Origin: a virus
Direction: 5' to 3' (one strand)
UHGV virus genome: UHGV-1616174
DNA length: 12,393 bases
The notes under the pieces were generated by a model that did not search any database, was not told where the DNA came from, and was given only the letters and a program-made list of their open reading frames with translations. Numbering within the stretch: position 1 is the first letter of the stretch; every line of letters starts with the position of its first letter. This document shows, in pieces, positions 1-8,391 of this stretch. The position numbers were made by a program, and so were the translations under genes.

Positions 1-1005
1 TCCGATGCTGTAAATTTCCCCGGGTACCAGCCTTCCGGTTGGCCCTTGTGGTCCCTGTGGTCCGGTTTTACCATCCAACCCGGGCAGTCCCATCGGCCCT
101 CGCCCTCCGGCAGGGCCCTGTGGCCCCGTTTTACCCGCAGGACCTGCCGGACCAACCGGCCCCGGAACACCCTGTGCCCCCGCTGGTCCCCTTTCACCTC
201 GTGGCCCTGCCGGACCTGCCTTACCTTCCGCTCCGGCGGTACCATCCTTTCCTGCGGGGCCTGCCGGGCCTGCATCACCTTTGGGACCAGGTGCGCCAGC
301 CGGTCCCCGTGGGCCTGCGGGCCCCACTGCACCAGGTGCGCCAGGTTCCCCCCTGTCCCCCTTCGGTCCGGGGACTGCTGCCCGGGTTGCTGCCTCTTCT
401 GCCTTCGTTTTTGCTGCCTGCACTTCTGCCATTACCGCTTTCACAGCCTTTGGGGTTGCCGCTTTTGTTTCATCATCGCTGTTGGTATCGCTGCTCAGCT
501 GTACAACACCTTTCTGTGATGTGCTGGCATCCGGAACACTGGCGACACTGCCTGCGGGACCTGCCGGACCTGTTGCGCCGGGTTCACCTTTATCCCCTTT
601 CGGGCCGGTTTGCCCTGCCGGACCCTGTGGTCCGGGTGGTCCGGGTGGTCCGGCCTCTCCACGTGGGCCGGTGTCACCTTTCGGCCCCGGCTCACCTCTC
701 GGACCAGCATCCCCCTTTGGTCCCTGAGGCCCCCCCGGGTCTCCTTTTTCGCCTCTGGCCCCGGTTTCACCACGCGGCCCCATTGCTCCCTGTGGCCCGG
801 TCGCACCACGTGGGCCAGATGGCCCTGTTGCGCCAGCTGGCCCCTGCACTCCCTGAGGTCCCCGTTCTCCTGTATCACCTTTCTGGCCTGGTATGCCCTG
901 AGGTCCGCGCTCTCCCTGCTCACCTTTCTCCCCACGCGGACCCGCCGGACCTGTTTCACCACGAGGACCAGCATCACCTTTCGGCCCTGTATCGCCTTTA
1001 GGTCC
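1..1005 (-). repeat. Collagen-like (Gly-X-Y)n coding repeat region of the tail fibre gene, in two blocks (about 1..400 and 550..1005)
   Basis: The plus strand shows C-rich triplet periodicity (ccN ccN), and the plus-frame translations in the track are Pro/Gly-rich with no stops (39..1001, 281..727). Minus frame 0 reads as GPx/GxP triplets. Confidence 0.8.
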
Positions 1006-1692
1006 TCGTGCATTCTCAGCCATACGTCTGGCTTCTTCAGCACTAACCGTAGCAGCCTCAGCACGTTTAAGAACGTCTCCGGCGGCCTCCTGAGCCACTC
1101 TGGCGGTTTCAGCATGTTGTCTGGCCTCTTTCGCGTCTGCTGCCGCTGCCTTTTCAGACTCACCTGCCCGGGTCGCCGCCTCTGCCGCCTCACTGGCTTT
1201 TTGTGCAGACTCCGTCGCTTTGCTTGTCGCAGCCTTCGCGCTTTCTGATGCAGTCTTCGCACTGGCAGCAGCGCTTTCCTTCGACTGTGAAGCCTGATTA
1301 TTTTTCACCGCCGTGTCTTCGTTCAGACGACGAATCGTGGCAAGGTCATCCGCCACATTGTTCTGTATCTGCCGGAAATCTGTCAGCAGTTCTCCGGGTA
1401 TGCTCACCTCAACAAGACTGCGGCGTAACAGCATATTGAGCGTCACCGTACTTTCAGTCCCCTCAATACGCACACGTCCGTAGACAGCAGTCTTCCCTTT
1501 CACCGTCACAGAAACCGCATACTCCCCCGGCTCCAGCGTCATTCCGTAATACCCGCCGTCACGAGTCACTGCTGACGCACTGGTGCCGCTGAGCGCATCC
1601 GGTGAAACTGTCAGCGCCGTCAGGGTAATATTTGCGCCTGATATCGCCTCACCATCAGGAGATTTCAGCGTCCCCGAAACAACAACACTCAC
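1..1692 (-). CDS. Side tail fibre protein (Stf-like) with two collagen-like Gly-X-Y blocks; 3' end lies beyond the window start. Putative GTG start at 1690..1692.
   Basis: Hand translation of minus frame 0 gives [27 protein letters not shown]..., then an Ala/Ser/Lys-rich segment, then long runs of [12 protein letters not shown] triplets. Between the two collagen blocks (about plus 430..550) sits [30 protein letters not shown], which matches the conserved tail-fibre repeat I recall from lambda Stf ([29 protein letters not shown]). RBS GGAGG lies 6 nt upstream of the GTG. The six-frame track omits this ORF, presumably because it has no in-window stop. Frame continuity was checked by hand at several points, not computed. 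Confidence 0.8.
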
Positions 1693-2339
1693 ATTCCACC
1701 TCCGTTAAACACCTTCTTGCGGGCAGACAATGCACTGTCTGCACCCTGTTTAATCCCGAGCTGCTCAACAAAACTCTGATAATGTTGTGCTGCCAGTCCT
1801 GACTCTGCACCACCGGCTGCATCCTTGCTGAATGCACGAAACAACATCCAGTCAACCAGCGGGTTAACATAAGCCTCTTCCAGCGGTACAGGCGTGTCAT
1901 CATCCTGCGTCAGAACATACACCGCCTCCGGAATGCGGCTGACCACAGCATCAACACTCACAGCCTCCTCCGGTGCCGGAAACAGCCAGAACACGCGCGG
2001 GGCAAGATCACTGCTGATAAAGCATTCCGGTTTCCCCCTCAGCATGTGCCAGTCGGGATACTGTGCATCAAGCACCTCACGGGATTGCGGTTTTACAGCA
2101 CTGCCATCGCTGAGGCATATCACGTCAAGAAGCTGTATTGCGCCATCAGGCAAAGTCTGACGTGCACCAGGAACACAATTCAGCGTCTCCAGACTTGCGC
2201 CTGCATCCGGCCTTGCCAGAATCACCGCCCGCACAGCATCATTGTAATAATCACACAGCTCAGCCAGAGGCCAGCGCACCATCATCGGGTCAACCAGTTG
2301 CGTGTTCACTCGTCCGATGATTTCAGTAATCGTCGTCAT
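1689..2339 (-). CDS. Hypothetical virion-associated protein (216 aa), function unknown
   Basis: Complete ORF in the six-frame track. Its ATG overlaps the stop of the upstream gene by 1 nt, and its own stop overlaps the tail-fibre GTG. It lies between head genes and the tail fibre. No family recognised by eye. Confidence 0.6.
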
Positions 2340-2902
2340 CAGTAAAACCTTTGTCTGCGGACAGGATTGCGGTATGAGGAGTACGGACTTGTCGCCAGTG
2401 TGTCGCGATATGCCCGACGGATACCCTCAGAAAACAGCACAGAGAAATACTGTGCGCGCGACGGGTCTGACCATGAAACCCCGGTCTGCATGAACAACCG
2501 TTCAAGCGCCCCTGCAGCCACTTCTTCAGACCATGCCCGCAGTTCATCCTGCACCTGACGGCTCCCTGCTTTCGGAGCAACGGCATAAAGCACACTCACC
2601 TCTCCGGGCGAACAGGCAAAATGCATTACCCGCCCCGGGCGGATTTCCACATCATGACCGGCAAAAAGCTCACGCCCGTCAGCGAGGATACGAATAATAT
2701 GTACGCACTCTTCATTCTCCGCGTCATATGGCAGCACACAGTCCTCTCCGGCTGACGGTGACAGCGTGGCTTCACGGCGGCACAACAGGGACTGACGGCA
2801 GAATGCCACTGCCGACATGGATAACGCATCCGTCATCATAATGTTCAGCGGACCACTGATATGGCGACGGACATACGGTAAAAAATCAGTCAGTTCCGCC
2901 AT
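2339..2902 (-). CDS. Hypothetical protein (187 aa from the internal ATG at 2900..2902; the track ORF extends to 2962)
   Basis: ORF 2339..2962 in the track. I chose the ATG beginning MAELTDFLPY because it overlaps the upstream gene stop by only 17 nt, consistent with translational coupling. Function unknown. Confidence 0.55.
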   Translation of the reverse strand: MAELTDFLPYVRRHISGPLNIMMTDALSMSAVAFCRQSLLCRREATLSPSAGEDCVLPYDAENEECVHIIRILADGRELFAGHDVEIRPGRVMHFACSPGEVSVLYAVAPKAGSRQVQDELRAWSEEVAAGALERLFMQTGVSWSDPSRAQYFSVLFSEGIRRAYRDTLATSPYSSYRNPVRRQRFY

Positions 2903-3347
2903 GCTGTTCAGTCTCCGCAACACGACGGCGAAATGCCTCACGCACACGGACACGAAATGCATCAGCCGTTTCTTTCGGGTCTTTGTGAATATTCAGCTCT
3001 TCTGCCTCACACAACGTTGCCAGCCGTGCGGACGTGAGTTTGCTCAAATCCACATCCTGACCACCAACGCTAACCACAAAACTGTTCTCCGCTTCTGCAA
3101 GAGCAACCTGTTCTCTTTCCTGCGCCTGCTGTGCCTGCCGCAACTGCTCATCCTGTTGTTGCTTTTTGAGCACACCATCAAGCTCTTCATGACGAACCCA
3201 GACATCCGGAAAGGCCAGCAACTGCCAGGCAAGCGCGCTGTCAACATGCACCGGCTCAAGACGCGGGAACAGTGTACGACTCCCGGTAAGGGTATCCTTT
3301 TTCACGGGTTTGGGGCCGATATAGACAACGGCAATTTTCTCGCTCAT
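2886..3347 (-). CDS. Hypothetical protein (153 aa) with a Gln/Glu-rich helical middle segment; possible head-completion or connector protein
   Basis: Complete ORF. It begins about 15 nt downstream of a terminator-like hairpin. Contains KKQQQDEQLRQAQQAQEREQ. No family recognised. Confidence 0.55.
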   Translation of the reverse strand: MSEKIAVVYIGPKPVKKDTLTGSRTLFPRLEPVHVDSALAWQLLAFPDVWVRHEELDGVLKKQQQDEQLRQAQQAQEREQVALAEAENSFVVSVGGQDVDLSKLTSARLATLCEAEELNIHKDPKETADAFRVRVREAFRRRVAETEQHGGTD

Positions 3348-3361
3348 ATAATTCCCCGGAT

Positions 3362-3384
3362 AAAAAAGCCCGCATGACGCGGGC
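3362..3384 (-). terminator. Putative rho-independent terminator after the 130-aa gene
   Basis: Minus-strand RNA has stem GCCCGC, loop of about 5 nt, stem GCGGGC, followed by UUUUUUAUCC (plus strand aaaaaa gcccgc atgac gcgggc). Located 14 nt after the stop of the 130-aa CDS. Confidence 0.55.
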
Positions 3385-3397
3385 CGGAAGGTTTATA

Positions 3398-3790
3398 TCA
3401 GTATCCCACCACGGTATAACGCAGCAGAACATTCAGGGTACCGGTTGCAGCTGCTGTCTTAATGGTGACCGTAACCAGCTCTCCGTCACGCTGTGTGGTG
3501 TACGGCTCCACTGGCACATACTTGGTAAAGCTGGCAGTTACTGCACCACTGTCACCAATGAGTTCATGTTCGCCAGATTTAACGCTGACAGTTGCTGTGC
3601 CGCCAAGTCCCTTGGTAGAAACCAGCTGTAACGCATTAATACGAACACCGATCGGCAACGAAAAAAGATGAATAACACTGTCCGCTTCCGCAGCATTCAC
3701 AGTAAACACACCTTCTGCCACCGACTCATTACCGTGCGTACCCGTATAGACCCGTTCACTCAGTGACGGGGCAAGGATGGTCTTTGCCAT
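3398..3790 (-). CDS. Hypothetical small virion protein (130 aa), beta-rich; candidate capsid decoration or Ig-like accessory protein
   Basis: Complete ORF with RBS AGGAG 8 nt upstream of the ATG. Sits immediately after the major capsid gene and is bracketed by hairpin/T-run terminators on both sides. Sequence is Val/Thr/Gly-rich, suggesting beta structure. Confidence 0.6.
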   Translation of the reverse strand: MAKTILAPSLSERVYTGTHGNESVAEGVFTVNAAEADSVIHLFSLPIGVRINALQLVSTKGLGGTATVSVKSGEHELIGDSGAVTASFTKYVPVEPYTTQRDGELVTVTIKTAAATGTLNVLLRYTVVGY

Positions 3791-3805: not shown

Positions 3806-3828
3806 AAAAAGCCGGGCGATAACCCGGC
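3806..3828 (-). terminator. Putative rho-independent terminator after the major capsid gene
   Basis: Minus-strand RNA has stem GCCGGG, loop UUAUCG, stem CCCGGC, then UUUUUCAGGAG. The U-tract runs directly into the RBS of the 130-aa gene. Confidence 0.55.
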
Positions 3829-3844: not shown

Positions 3845-5059
3845 TCAGAGCTTCACTGCGGTATCAACAGCAATCACACCGTGATCCTGCATCCTGCCGC
3901 TCTTCTCCGGGAAACGGATTTTTTTCAGACCGTTGATCCAGCTGATTGCTATCTCAGTACGGTTATCCATATCCGTTTTCTTCTCAACCATGTTGAAGTG
4001 ACCGCCGCCCTTCTGACCGTACGCATTCGCCAGTGCCTGAGCACCCAGCAGCATGGCGCGGTCAATGTTGGTTGCGGCCTGCTTCTCTTCTGTGGTTGCC
4101 GTCAGGTCGTTTTTCGATACCAGAACCTTTGACCCCTGATAGAAACGGATCGGCATCCCCGCATACTTGCGGACCAGGATATTGCGCCACATCGCACATT
4201 CGCCTTTGAACAACGGATGATTAAACCCTTTTGAACGGTTCACGGCACGCGTCATCATCTGGTTCCAGTCCTTGCCGGACGTGGAGGTGTACCAGTCATT
4301 CCACTGACGCGGCGTAACGTACAGGACGTAATACGGATCTTCGCCATGCAGTTCATCTCCGGACAGACGCACCGGCTGTAACGGATGGGCCATCTCGTCA
4401 ATAAACAGCGAGAGATTATCGACCAGCCCAAGGGTGAACAGGTCTGACTGATCAATACCGTCAAAACTCGTCGCATCACCACCAAAAAAATGACGGTCAT
4501 ACGTCGGCGGCAGTACGTCGTTGATCATGATTTTTTTGAATTCAGGGTGATCTGCCGTTGGCAGAATGGTGTCGTCAGCAACAAAATCACCACGGGCACC
4601 GGCAAGATGCACTATCGCACACTGGTCCTGCAGGTCGTTAAAGTACGTACCCAGCAGCGTTCTGGCAGAGGATGCCAGGTTGAACTTCGTACGCTGCTGG
4701 CTCATACGTCCGCCCGCATCCACCAGGTGACGGCCCTGATTAATTTTCAGGGAAAAATCAGCATGGCTGAGGTCTTCACCACGGCCTTCAACGCGCTCAT
4801 CCCCCATCGTCGGACGTTTAGAGAGTTTGTGCATGATGCTGAACGTCACTTCATCACCGGCCTGTTTGTTGAGGTCCGTGATTCGCACAACCGGTGCACC
4901 GGCACTGGTCTGCTTCGTGCTTTTCTTGTCAGGCGAAACTGCTTTTGGTGCATCCTGCTGTTCAGTGAGTATATTCACCATTGAGCGGTTGCGGTTGGCA
5001 GCCGTGAAAAGCGCCACCTGATACAGCTTATTCGCCTGGGCTGTTGTTACTGTGGTCAT
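3845..5059 (-). CDS. Major capsid (coat) protein, 404 aa
   Basis: Complete ORF with RBS AAGGAG upstream. Position is immediately after the scaffold-like gene and before a terminator, and the size is typical for a coat protein. Assignment rests on synteny and size; no specific fold was recognised by eye. Confidence 0.6.
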   Translation of the reverse strand: MTTVTTAQANKLYQVALFTAANRNRSMVNILTEQQDAPKAVSPDKKSTKQTSAGAPVVRITDLNKQAGDEVTFSIMHKLSKRPTMGDERVEGRGEDLSHADFSLKINQGRHLVDAGGRMSQQRTKFNLASSARTLLGTYFNDLQDQCAIVHLAGARGDFVADDTILPTADHPEFKKIMINDVLPPTYDRHFFGGDATSFDGIDQSDLFTLGLVDNLSLFIDEMAHPLQPVRLSGDELHGEDPYYVLYVTPRQWNDWYTSTSGKDWNQMMTRAVNRSKGFNHPLFKGECAMWRNILVRKYAGMPIRFYQGSKVLVSKNDLTATTEEKQAATNIDRAMLLGAQALANAYGQKGGGHFNMVEKKTDMDNRTEIAISWINGLKKIRFPEKSGRMQDHGVIAVDTAVKL

Positions 5060-5081: not shown

Positions 5082-6089
5082 TTACCCGAGTTTTTCCAGA
5101 ATCGCGTCAATTTCAGCGTCCGTCATGCCTCGCATGGCTGCTTCAATTTCGGTATGGGAAGCACCAAGTAACCGTTCAAAATTATCACCGGTTCCGACGG
5201 AAGCCGTGTTGCCAAGCTCTGACGGGGAAGCAGGCACTGCCATCTCCCGTTCAGCGGCTTTCACTTTTTCTTCCGCCGTTTTCCGGATATCCGTGTTGTC
5301 TGCCTTGTCATCAGAAGGCGGCTCACTGGCTTCACCGAAAGCAAGCTGCGTACGGCGGGCCACTTCGGCGAAACGTTCAGTGAGCGGTTTGTCTTTCCAT
5401 GCGGGGTCATTCTGGAGCTTCCCGTCGATGGATACGGCAACCGAGAAGCGATCCGGATCGGAGTTCTGCCATGTTTTCAGCACCGGCACGGCATTCATCG
5501 CATCAAGAACCGGTGATAAATCCTCACCACCATGACCTTCTGCCTGCTGTGCTGATTGCTGAACACGGGACTGGAGATAGTTATTTTTACGGATGAGCGA
5601 AGCCACCGCGTCACCAATTTCCGGATACATCTCCCTGATACGGGCAATCTTCTCATCAGAGATTTTTTCGTTTTCCGGTAACGGTGCGGGTTTCATACCG
5701 GCCTGGTGGATCTGAGACGTCAGCAGTTCAACCAGGCGTTTTTCTTCGGCTATCTGTCCCCGAAGAAGTGCGGCTTCCTGTTCGGCCCGCTGCTTACCGG
5801 AACGTTCAGCCTCAAGGACTTCATAGGGAATGACGTGTTTACCATCGCGGGTGAGCACACCCTTCGCCTCCGGCTCCTTCACGTCCTGCGTCTGCTCAGC
5901 ACTGGCATCCGGCGTCGGTGCCGCAGTGTTATCGCCCGTCTGTGTCTGTGCTGCCTCATCCGCATGATTTTCTGTGGCGGCCTCTGTCACGCCGTCCTGT
6001 TCGTGACCGTCAATATCCACATCCCCAAGCCCTTCCAGCATTTTTTCCAGTTGTTCCGGGGTTTCTTCACCCGTAAATTCAAAATCCAT
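5082..6089 (-). CDS. Scaffolding protein (335 aa), acidic and helical
   Basis: Complete ORF located between portal and capsid genes. Highly acidic, Ala/Glu/Gln-rich, with predicted coiled-coil character. No protease motifs noticed. RBS GGAG upstream. Confidence 0.55.
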   Translation of the reverse strand: MDFEFTGEETPEQLEKMLEGLGDVDIDGHEQDGVTEAATENHADEAAQTQTGDNTAAPTPDASAEQTQDVKEPEAKGVLTRDGKHVIPYEVLEAERSGKQRAEQEAALLRGQIAEEKRLVELLTSQIHQAGMKPAPLPENEKISDEKIARIREMYPEIGDAVASLIRKNNYLQSRVQQSAQQAEGHGGEDLSPVLDAMNAVPVLKTWQNSDPDRFSVAVSIDGKLQNDPAWKDKPLTERFAEVARRTQLAFGEASEPPSDDKADNTDIRKTAEEKVKAAEREMAVPASPSELGNTASVGTGDNFERLLGASHTEIEAAMRGMTDAEIDAILEKLG

Positions 6090-6200: not shown

Positions 6201-6228
6201 ACAAAAAACCCCGTACGATGACGGGGTT
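6201..6228 (-). terminator. Putative rho-independent terminator immediately downstream of the portal gene
   Basis: Minus-strand RNA reads AACCCCGU-CAUCGU-ACGGGGUUUUUUGUUU: a GC-rich 6 to 8 bp stem, 6-nt loop and U6 tract, starting 19 nt after the portal stop. Confidence 0.6.
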
Positions 6229-6246
6229 CCGTTAAGTTCAGGATTT

Positions 6247-8391
6247 TCAGAGCGGCATTTCATGCATCCGCTGTTGTAGTGTATGCAGCATCTGTTGCTG
6301 AAGAACTTCCTGCTCCTGTTCCATATTCTGTATGCCGGTAATGATTTCTGCCGTATGTGCCTGGTTAAGCGCATCCACATAACGCTGTCCCTGTGCCGCG
6401 GCGACATCCCGTTGTGCGCCAGCATTATCCCGTTGCGCAGCCGCGCGTGCCCTGGCAGCTTCTGCTTCCAGTTTAGCCACCCGGCCTGTCATTTCGCGCA
6501 TCTGAAGTTCTGCCTGCTGTTGCTCCAGCGCCTGCTGTTGTGCTGCCGCTTCCTGCTCTTCCGGAGTCATCTCATCCGGTGATTTTGGCGTCCCCAGCGC
6601 CGCACGAATACGTTCGACAAATTCCTGTTTCTGCGGCACATCCAGAAGATTAACCCACAGATCGAGCACAACAGCCTGCACCTGAGGCGGCAGCCCCTGA
6701 ATAACCTCTGACATTCTCTGTGCAAGCTGTGCCTTAAACGCCGGTGTCTGCTGAACAGGAGCCAGCGCAATATGTGTATTTAACCTTGAAATATCATTGG
6801 TCAGTTCACCATTATCACCTTCAGCATTGAGGACAATGGTCTGGCGACGCTGACGATCATCGCGATTAATCACCACCGCATGATTGCGCCGCTTTTTCAG
6901 GTCATCAAGAAGATAAGCGAGCAACAGCCTTCCCACCTGCTGGCAGGCAAACTGGTAGTTATCGTTGATTTCGGCAAGGGTTGTGGCTCCCTGCTCCACC
7001 AGGTTGCTGATCGCCACACCGGACGATGCATTTGAATCCTGCCCGAGAAATGCGGAATAAACCCCCATCGTGTCCTGGATAAGTTTTTCCGACTCCTGCA
7101 TGACCTGAAACTGCTGGCTGGCAACCTGAAAATCCTGTTCAACCCGGAAAACATCAGCAACGCTTTTCTGATTTTTTCGGGCCGGATTCAGTTTAATAAT
7201 GCCATCCGGACGCTCGATCTGCTCCATCAGCTCGTTGTCTGACAACTGGGTGGCATCCTCGTCCATAATCACGCGTTTGGCCTGAAGCAACCACGTCAGT
7301 TTTATACGACGAAAATTCACCTCATCCTGTGCCGGAATGGCCCGGGAAATCAGCCCGTAAGGCTCCCCGGTTTTATCCTTCCGGTATCCCCAGAAGGGAA
7401 CCAGCGGGAACATCCCCTGCGGCGCACTGCAGGGGCGATCCACAATAAAGTGCGGTCCCACAAACCAGGCTTCACGAATACGACTTACCCGCCCGACTCT
7501 CACCTGCACCCGCCCGGATGCCACAGCCACCGCATGCATCAGATTATTTTTATCAAAGGCCACCACCCGTCCATTACTGAGTTCAATCACCGGAAGACGC
7601 TCGAATGTACGGTAATAAACCACCTGAAGCAGCACACGACGGCGTTCACGCTGAAGCCATTCGTTCTGCTGTCGATCCCATGACTGATACTCTTCCCATG
7701 CACTCATCAACGGACTGGGCTGGCCTTCAGTAACCGTGGTATCGACAAAACCACGCCAGTCATCAATGGCATAATCGATAACCTGAGCCATTCCCGGAAA
7801 TGTGGCTTTTGCCTCATCGGTATCCATCCAGCGGCGGCGCATCAGCCAGCGGCAGTCACTTAAATCAGCCTCCCGGCTGAGCCAGTCCCAGAACACTTCA
7901 TTCCGGCTGACAGTAGACACCTTAAACTCAGGCCCGAACGGATCGCTGTTCCGTCTGACCTCCACCCAGCTGAGCCCCGCTTTGATTTGTTCCGCATAGG
8001 CATCAGAACGGGCTTTATTCATATTTCCAAGGCGGCAAGCATCGGCAAATTCAGCATTAATAGCTTCAGCCAGTTTTTCTGTTTCATCATCAGGATCATC
8101 TGATATCACCAACAGATCAGTCCGCGTTTTGGCCTCCATACCCAGAACACCATCAACGGTAGGCGCGATGAGGTTATGGATGGTCATCGGCTGACCGCGA
8201 TCTTTCAACACCTGGAGAACTTCCAGTGGCAACTGGTCACCATCGTAATACGCACAGGCCTTGTTTGCGGCATCGCGCCATTTAGGCTGACTGTCAATAT
8301 CAGAACAAAGCGCCTGTAACTGGCGCTGAGAAAAACGCGGCGTGGCTCCGTTGTCGTTTTTCGTCGCCATGGTATTAGTTTCATTTTTCAT
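6247..8391 (-). CDS. Portal protein (714 aa) with a long Gln/Ala/Glu-rich helical C-terminal extension
   Basis: Complete ORF whose start overlaps the terminase large subunit stop by 1 nt. Size and position are portal-typical. The C-terminal roughly 120 aa (EEQEAAAQQQALEQQQAELQ...AEAARARAAAQRD...) resembles the helical barrel extension of P22-type portals, from memory. Confidence 0.8.
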   Translation of the reverse strand: MKNETNTMATKNDNGATPRFSQRQLQALCSDIDSQPKWRDAANKACAYYDGDQLPLEVLQVLKDRGQPMTIHNLIAPTVDGVLGMEAKTRTDLLVISDDPDDETEKLAEAINAEFADACRLGNMNKARSDAYAEQIKAGLSWVEVRRNSDPFGPEFKVSTVSRNEVFWDWLSREADLSDCRWLMRRRWMDTDEAKATFPGMAQVIDYAIDDWRGFVDTTVTEGQPSPLMSAWEEYQSWDRQQNEWLQRERRRVLLQVVYYRTFERLPVIELSNGRVVAFDKNNLMHAVAVASGRVQVRVGRVSRIREAWFVGPHFIVDRPCSAPQGMFPLVPFWGYRKDKTGEPYGLISRAIPAQDEVNFRRIKLTWLLQAKRVIMDEDATQLSDNELMEQIERPDGIIKLNPARKNQKSVADVFRVEQDFQVASQQFQVMQESEKLIQDTMGVYSAFLGQDSNASSGVAISNLVEQGATTLAEINDNYQFACQQVGRLLLAYLLDDLKKRRNHAVVINRDDRQRRQTIVLNAEGDNGELTNDISRLNTHIALAPVQQTPAFKAQLAQRMSEVIQGLPPQVQAVVLDLWVNLLDVPQKQEFVERIRAALGTPKSPDEMTPEEQEAAAQQQALEQQQAELQMREMTGRVAKLEAEAARARAAAQRDNAGAQRDVAAAQGQRYVDALNQAHTAEIITGIQNMEQEQEVLQQQMLHTLQQRMHEMPL

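Follow-up and report, generated by a model that had tools for sequence, protein, structure and literature searches.

The 12,393-nucleotide stretch of virus genome UHGV-1616174 analysed here, the whole of which we call the window, is very probably the late region of a temperate short-tailed lambdoid phage of the 933W / VT2-Sakai (Sp5) / phi24B type (Sepvirinae, Traversvirus-like), and two of the small genes between its head genes and its tail-fibre gene encode predicted adaptor rings of a short tail. An earlier note, made from the sequence alone, had remarked that just three uncharacterised genes, for proteins of 153, 187 and 216 amino acids (aa), separate the head genes from the fibre, and had proposed a podovirus-like head and tail module joined to lambda-type lysis genes. 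This proposal held up, since the region is of the Sepvirinae type, its relatives are short-tailed and its Rz and Rz1 genes are lambdoid. The organization of the module is itself already known, from the genomes of 1999-2000, genetics of 2016 and a structure of 2026; phages of the 933W type were reportedly recognized as short-tailed lambdoid phages in the genome papers of 1999-2000.

A DNA search with the window matched 432 phage records, 171 of which cover at least 80% of it at 90-98% identity, and nearly all matching records are Shiga toxin (Stx) 1- or Stx2-converting phages or Escherichia and Shigella relatives. The best DNA match was Escherichia phage PhiR12_3 (98.4%), which carries no Shiga toxin gene in the region examined. 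The window is collinear with PhiR12_3, VT2-Sakai and phi24B, the last two of which are classified in the Sepvirinae, genus Traversvirus, and for each window protein phi24B has a collinear counterpart of 75-97% identity (65% overall for the fibre). We checked the phi24B gene product (gp) numbers used here against its GenBank record and proteome table (gp64, 36739-37440; gp62, 37356-38090; gp67, ending at 36382). The components of a Sepvirinae-type module, namely a P22-type portal, an N4/GP4-type capsid, an immunoglobulin (Ig)-like cement, two adaptors and a collagen fibre, were all found in this order, and phi24B, 933W and VT2-Sakai share the same order from endolysin to fibre, with a short-tailed virion and, in phi24B, two adaptor rings. 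The window differs from phi24B and VT2-Sakai in having two small open reading frames (ORFs) between R and Rz in place of an 'ant' (antirepressor) fragment and in lacking a bor gene between Rz and TerS; compared with phi24B, its fibre shaft has diverged and its TerS contains a low-complexity insert.

The whole gene set lies on the minus strand with all ORFs intact, and the ORF layout reproduces the transcription order previously read from the sequence: capsid, 130-aa, 153-aa, 187-aa and 216-aa genes, then a collagen-type fibre, with positions 1689-3347 spanning exactly the 153-, 187- and 216-aa genes. The count of three intervening genes is correct if the 130-aa gene is assigned to the head, which is appropriate because its product is a cement protein; counted from capsid to fibre, there are four. 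No window ORF matched a tail-tube, tape-measure, G/GT chaperone or prohead protease family in Pfam or PHROG, so the absence of such tail genes between head and fibre, as well as that of a protease, was upheld; the Sp5 paper notes the same absence of a protease. Neither the window nor the downstream DNA of its relatives contains a lambda-type siphovirus tail module, and the interval between portal and capsid, rather than an HK97/lambda-type protease, holds just a 335-aa non-protease ORF. Since the virion would have no long tail, the lack of tube, tape-measure and chaperone genes is explained.

Experiments on two relatives bear directly on these genes. The Sp5 late region was dissected with in-frame deletions in 2016 (Mondal et al., PMC5155283); its ORF63-67 encode proteins of 129, 153, 187, 216 and 645 aa, a series that matches the window, and Sp5 lacks a protease and is short-tailed by electron microscopy (EM) (PMC5155283). 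For phi24B, a cryo-EM structure and a proteome were reported in a 2026 preprint (10.64898/2026.04.10.717836). Its capsid, with a triangulation number (T) of 9, is built from gp69, which was resolved from Thr2, and is decorated at three-capsomer junctions by Ig-like trimers of the cement gp67, anchored by His19; the portal is a dodecamer of gp72 with a C-terminal barrel, gp57 forms a hexameric nozzle, gp56 is the needle, and gp47 (2,811 aa) is an internal protein proposed to be an ejection protein (10.64898/2026.04.10.717836). The tails of phi24B and Sp5 measure ~22 nm by cryo-EM and EM, respectively (10.64898/2026.04.10.717836; PMC5155283). Ring stoichiometry, contacts and short-tail morphology are taken in what follows from these experiments by others on Sp5 and phi24B, and our own analysis establishes gene order, homology and fold, and shows that long-tail genes are lacking in the window and its relatives.

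The 216-aa protein (1689..2339, minus strand; Sp5 ORF66, phi24B gp62) matched the Pfam family PF24175 (SU10_adaptor) with an expectation value (E) of 9e-32 and 111.6 bits against a cut-off of 27, its residues 2-203 aligning with positions 1-190 of the 194-position profile. It is 89.8% identical to phi24B gp62 and also matched chain 8jov_2 of Ralstonia phage GP4, which is present in 12 copies (E 1.5e-25). The 187-aa protein (2339..2902, minus strand; Sp5 ORF65, phi24B gp64) is 81% identical to phi24B gp64 but had no Pfam match at E <= 0.1, so its sequence did not place it in PF24175, and among its relatives a single close homologue (P0080) has a precomputed PF24175 match. A profile built from 17 of its homologues nevertheless matched GP4 chain 8jov_G (gp81, 12 copies) at E 3e-9. 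Consistent with this, an AlphaFold model of the 187-aa protein, with a mean predicted local distance difference test (pLDDT) score of 76 and a predicted template-modelling score (pTM) of 0.63, found 8jov_G as its top Foldseek match (template-modelling score, TM, 0.70; E 3.6e-9), with more than 15 podophage adaptors ranked below it; these lower matches included the adaptors of KHP30, crAss001, SU10, DEV, N4, Pa223, A4, VP1 and T7, and also 8jov_2. The closest adaptor parallels are the SU10 family and the T7 gp11-type fold: the 216-aa protein is a clear sequence member of the former, and the model of the 187-aa protein superposes on the SU10, N4, T7 and crAss001 adaptors.

From sequence and model, the 187-aa protein is predicted to be the dodecameric neck adaptor bound to the portal, and sequence likewise identifies the 216-aa protein as the putative second dodecameric ring, a tail adaptor that would make the transition from twelvefold (C12) to sixfold (C6) symmetry at the nozzle and anchor the fibres. 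In phi24B, gp64 (neck) and gp62 (tail) form two dodecameric adaptor rings and have one common fold at 18% identity; other podophages have one to three adaptor rings (10.64898/2026.04.10.717836). The earlier note had listed the three unknown proteins as candidate adaptor, nozzle or ejection proteins and had called for a profile and structure check of all three; this check placed the 187- and 216-aa proteins among the adaptors, found no credible match for the 153-aa protein, and made none of the three a nozzle or ejection protein. The neck-adaptor gene could also be read as 207 aa from an upstream ATG at 2962, a reading that we rejected in favour of 187 aa because PHROG 437, GP4-like and 187-aa homologues start at Met21 and the PhiR12_3 annotation agrees. 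Adaptor gene order varies among phages: neck precedes tail in Stx, Aeromonas and Vibrio D53 phages (window 1689-2902; L007 5426-6624), and the tail-adaptor homologue comes first in GP4-like Dimitile, Burkholderia DC1 and Erwinia Stean (L004 8980-10259; L008 5983-7256; L010 5929-7274).

Several observations weigh against this interpretation of the region. The 187- and 216-aa families aligned with an hhalign E of 0.24, such that paralogy is undetectable by sequence; this agrees with the 18% identity given in the preprint, and any kinship of the two adaptors would be visible at the level of the modelled fold only. The phi24B structure is a preprint, and because of this we relied on GP4 (8JOV) for independent structural support. 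Deletion of Sp5 ORF65 resulted in capsid spirals and led to its product being read as a scaffold (PMC5155283). Sp5 ORF66, the 216-aa homologue, is not among the listed essential genes, and the primers indicate a complete in-frame deletion (PMC5155283). Finally, because the window ends within the fibre gene, the genes of this element for the nozzle, the needle and the giant protein lie outside its view. With regard to ORF65, the gene is essential and its deletion gives no DNase-protected DNA, while Sp5 nozzle and needle mutants retained DNA (PMC5155283); this phenotype fits a neck adaptor, because DNA would leak from heads that cannot close. No heads formed on deletion of Sp5 ORF61, the homologue of the window's 335-aa gene, yet it was ORF65 that was named the scaffold (PMC5155283). 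The reported dispensability of ORF66 clashes with the phi24B structure, where the tail adaptor connects neck adaptor and nozzle and carries the essential fibres; if it were true, a functional tail could be built on a single adaptor ring.

The first 564 codons of the lateral tail fibre (1..1692, minus strand; GTG start at 1692) lie in the window, the gene exiting at its left end; the full-length homologue in PhiR12_3 has 662 aa. Pfam identified Collagen (E 2e-40), Phage_fiber_2 and N-terminal CarboxypepD_reg-like domains, in a protein built from an N-terminal beta-sandwich anchor, a coiled coil and a collagen-like shaft. Fibre residues 1-150 are 90-98% identical to phi24B gp61, whereas the collagen shaft beyond about residue 250 is about 50% identical, and DNA matches to most Stx phages break off at 1007-1337, inside the fibre gene. 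Six trimers of gp61 surround the phi24B tail, their N-terminal beta-sandwiches docking on the C-terminal helical domain of gp62 (10.64898/2026.04.10.717836), and the adjacency of fibre and adaptor genes is accounted for by this binding. The earlier note had offered acquisition of the fibre gene by recombination next to a head module as an alternative. Recombination does appear to have occurred, but because the anchor is conserved with the module, the shaft has diverged and DNA matches stop at 1007-1337, it would have swapped the distal fibre rather than placed a foreign gene beside the head module.

The genes beyond the fibre, which the earlier note had proposed to examine, were assessed in the relatives. 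In PhiR12_3, VT2-Sakai and phi24B, the genes after the fibre are small fibre-related ORFs and morons (DUF4376, YadA-like adhesin, Lom), a 541-567-aa nozzle homologue that matches the hexameric GP4 chain 8jov_A (E 4e-55), a needle of 422 aa with Phage_Tail_Tip, and then several small ORFs and a giant protein of ~2,800 aa. In the closest relatives, the genes for the nozzle, the needle and the giant ejection protein are found 3-20 kb downstream, and none of these three phages has a tube or tape-measure gene after the fibre. Vibrio phage D53 and, at about 50% identity, an Aeromonas prophage have the same gene order. By analogy, we infer that this particular prophage has the same downstream genes.

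These findings bear on two other explanations for the region as a whole. If the window belonged to a lambda-like siphovirus with its tail genes elsewhere, the short head-to-fibre gap would be a rearrangement, and the lambdoid lysis and regulation genes, together with the Stf-like collagen fibre and the Lom of the relatives, would fit such a phage. However, in the complete genomes of 90-98% identical relatives the entire late region is free of tube, tape-measure and G/GT-type genes, the portal, capsid, adaptors and nozzle all match parts of the podophage GP4, and the Sp5 and phi24B tails measure the ~22 nm given above; we consider this explanation barely credible. It is also very unlikely that the window is what remains of a defective prophage that lost its tail genes and whose head module became fused to a stray fibre gene. 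Such a remnant would be compatible with the mosaic distal two-thirds of the fibre (about 50% identity to phi24B compared with about 90% for its neighbours) and with the position at which most Stx-phage DNA matches end, but the window ORFs are all intact and tightly coupled, their arrangement is collinear with that of the inducible, plaque-forming PhiR12_3, Sp5 and phi24B, the N-terminal anchor domain of the fibre, 96-98% conserved, docks in phi24B on the product of the adjacent gene, and adaptor and fibre genes are also adjacent in the Aeromonas and Vibrio relatives.

As the late region of a short-tailed Stx-type phage, the window would specify a virion without a long tail, in which a ~22-nm stub is assembled directly on a P22-like portal. 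Headful packaging into a protease-less T=9 procapsid would precede assembly of the stub, and the 130-aa protein would be a trimeric Ig-like cement of the capsid. Twelve copies of the 187-aa neck adaptor would form the ring next to the portal and twelve of the 216-aa tail adaptor the ring after it, followed by the nozzle and needle. The tail adaptor would provide the C12-to-C6 transition to the hexameric nozzle, and its C-terminal helical domain would hold the N-terminal beta-sandwiches of six trimeric collagen-shaft fibres. The nozzle, the needle and an internal (ejection) protein of ~2,800 aa would be encoded downstream, past the window.

The third small protein, of 153 aa (2886..3347, minus strand; Sp5 ORF64, phi24B gp65), belongs to PHROG 482 (E 4e-86), a family without annotation that has about 190 representatives at 50% identity, and is 91% identical to phi24B vb_24B_33. 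Conservation in the family is highest in the N-terminal motif VYIG.K..K.DT..G...FPR and in the 'DL.K.T...L.T' helix-loop-helix at the C-terminus. An AlphaFold model (pLDDT 76, pTM 0.40) comprises a small beta domain, a 35-residue charged helix, a hairpin and two helices, with no adaptor fold, and fold searches with it gave weak matches to a few BFVD proteins labelled Rho_N or HeH (E > 0.01). PDB sequence searches with the protein and its profile returned nothing credible, and Pfam searches with 47 family members returned scattered chance matches, including HeH once (E 0.009); the protein was thus not placed in the gpFI, YqbF or HeH families of Pfam. Lambda gpFI and YqbF of the Bacillus subtilis skin prophage had no sequence similarity to it in Pfam or the PDB, and their fold scores were near noise. 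The family gave no hhalign match to Dimitile D35, the ORF in the same slot of a GP4-like phage, and D35 itself is without relatives in the PDB.

The PHROG-482 gene keeps its slot between cement and neck adaptor in E. coli, Aeromonas and Vibrio phages (window 2886-3347; L007 4959-5426; L005 7001-7438), and in GP4-like, DC1 and Stean phages this slot is filled by unrelated ORFs of 180-245 aa. The 153-aa protein is neither adaptor nor nozzle and, judging from present evidence, does not act in ejection either. We considered whether it could nonetheless be a virion component, either an internal (ejection) protein or a third neck ring, since its gene sits among structural genes and is co-transcribed with the adaptors, deletion of ORF64 in Sp5, although leaky, strongly lowered infectivity (PMC5155283), the phi24B adaptor lumen contains unassigned diffuse density that is lost on ejection, and the number of adaptor rings in other podophages varies as noted above. 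This seems unlikely, given that the portion of the phi24B proteome tables available lists no ORF ending at 36893, the position of the 153-aa counterpart, while including proteins with 1-2 spectra and abundant flanking gp67 and gp64, an absence that is read from another phage with a 91% identical protein. In addition, the model lacks an adaptor fold, and GP4-like, DC1, PBC5 and Stean relatives have the same tail core but no member of the family. The leading suggestion, still tentative, is that the 153-aa protein assists packaging or head completion without entering the virion, as an analogue of lambda gpFI. Slightly more speculative is the broader idea that PHROG-482 could represent an uncharacterised class of gpFI-like, non-virion head-completion or packaging helpers. 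In T=9 Stx-type podoviruses, these would work at the portal vertex once packaging has ended and before the neck adaptor binds, and would have a small beta domain at the N-terminus, a charged coiled linker and, at the C-terminus, an HeH-like pair of helices.

The closest parallels outside the Stx phages are Ralstonia phage GP4 (PDB 8JOV) and Dimitile, with homologous portal, major capsid protein, tail adaptor, neck adaptor and nozzle and 12/12/6 chain copies. GP4-like phages differ from the window in that identity is 20-33%, the tail-adaptor gene comes first, the fibres are unrelated and a different 180-aa ORF occupies the 153-aa slot. Phages of the window's type have a portal like that of P22, ending in a C-terminal barrel, lack a prohead protease as P22 does, and likewise add the tail to the portal once packaging is complete. 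Unlike P22, whose coat is T=7, they have an N4/GP4-type T=9 capsid, two adaptor rings, collagen fibres instead of tailspikes and one giant internal protein in place of gp7/gp20/gp16.

Among the head genes, the portal (714 aa; 6247..8391, minus strand) matched PF16510 (P22_portal) over residues 31-648 (E 1e-128) and continues into a Q/A/E-rich helix that corresponds to the barrel domain of the phi24B portal, as anticipated by the earlier description of a P22-like portal with a Q-rich C-terminal extension; it is 96.6% identical to phi24B gp72 and contains the RRNHAVVINRDDRQRRQTIVLNAEGDN segment named in the cryo-EM preprint. The 335-aa acidic protein (5082..6089, minus strand; Sp5 ORF61, phi24B gp70) is 90% identical to gp70 and would, judging from its gene position and the Sp5 deletion phenotype, be a scaffold-like head-assembly protein. 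In purified phi24B virions, gp70 gave 224 spectra, which is odd for a scaffold expected to leave the head. The major capsid protein (404 aa; 3845..5059, minus strand), of the N4/GP4-type HK97 fold, matched PF13252 (Phage_capsid_3; E 9e-88) and is 94.8% identical to phi24B gp69, and the capsid cement protein (130 aa; 3398..3790, minus strand) belongs to PHROG 486 (virion structural protein), is 88.5% identical to phi24B gp67 and carries His19, the anchor residue of the phi24B cement.

Upstream of the portal gene in transcription order, the large terminase TerL (568 aa; 8391..10097, minus strand) matched PHROG 2 and 38407 and is 96% identical to phi24B Lterm. The small terminase TerS (283 aa; 10078..10929, minus strand; PHROG 370, E 2.5e-117) is 75% identical to phi24B Sterm, compared with 96-97% for TerL and portal, and has a central low-complexity insert, SAQKNAQKSAQIDTQKSAQKNAH... 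The lysis genes are of the lambdoid type by Pfam: the Rz spanin (11231..11698, minus strand; PF03245, E 7e-50), the Rz1 lipoprotein nested within it (11293-11478, minus strand; PF06085, E 3e-21) and the 3' end of the endolysin gene R (C-terminal 66 codons plus stop; 12191..12393, minus strand; Phage_lysozyme, E 3.5e-7; PHROG 7, endolysin), whose frame translation matches the C-terminus of the PhiR12_3 lysozyme R. Between endolysin and Rz lie two small overlapping ORFs (11706-12067) of 71 aa (PHROG 1115) and 73 aa (PHROG 4906), the former with a hydrophobic C-terminus.

The 153- and 187-aa genes overlap by 17 nt, the 187- and 216-aa genes by 1 nt and the 216-aa and fibre genes by 4 nt, overlaps from which we take these four genes to be translationally coupled. 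Terminator-like hairpins with T-runs on the minus strand lie 3' of the portal gene (6205-6230; pattern scan) and, by pattern scan and sequence, of the capsid (3811..3828) and cement (3367..3385) genes. These G+C-rich hairpins may be attenuators or mRNA-stabilising structures, and may fit the fall in copies per virion from ~540 for capsid and cement to 12 for the adaptors. Several long ORFs (320, 255, 212, 157 and 148 aa) occur on both strands within 39-1262, where the G+C content is 65%; we rejected them as frame-shadows of the collagen Gly-X-Y repeats, including the 255-aa ORF at 495-1262, which is off-frame and no gene.

For the biology of this group, these results indicate that the window is an ordinary late region of a medically important group of phages and not a new tail-less or chimeric element, and that genes mostly labelled 'hypothetical' in database records gain precise names: cement, neck adaptor, tail adaptor and lateral fibre.

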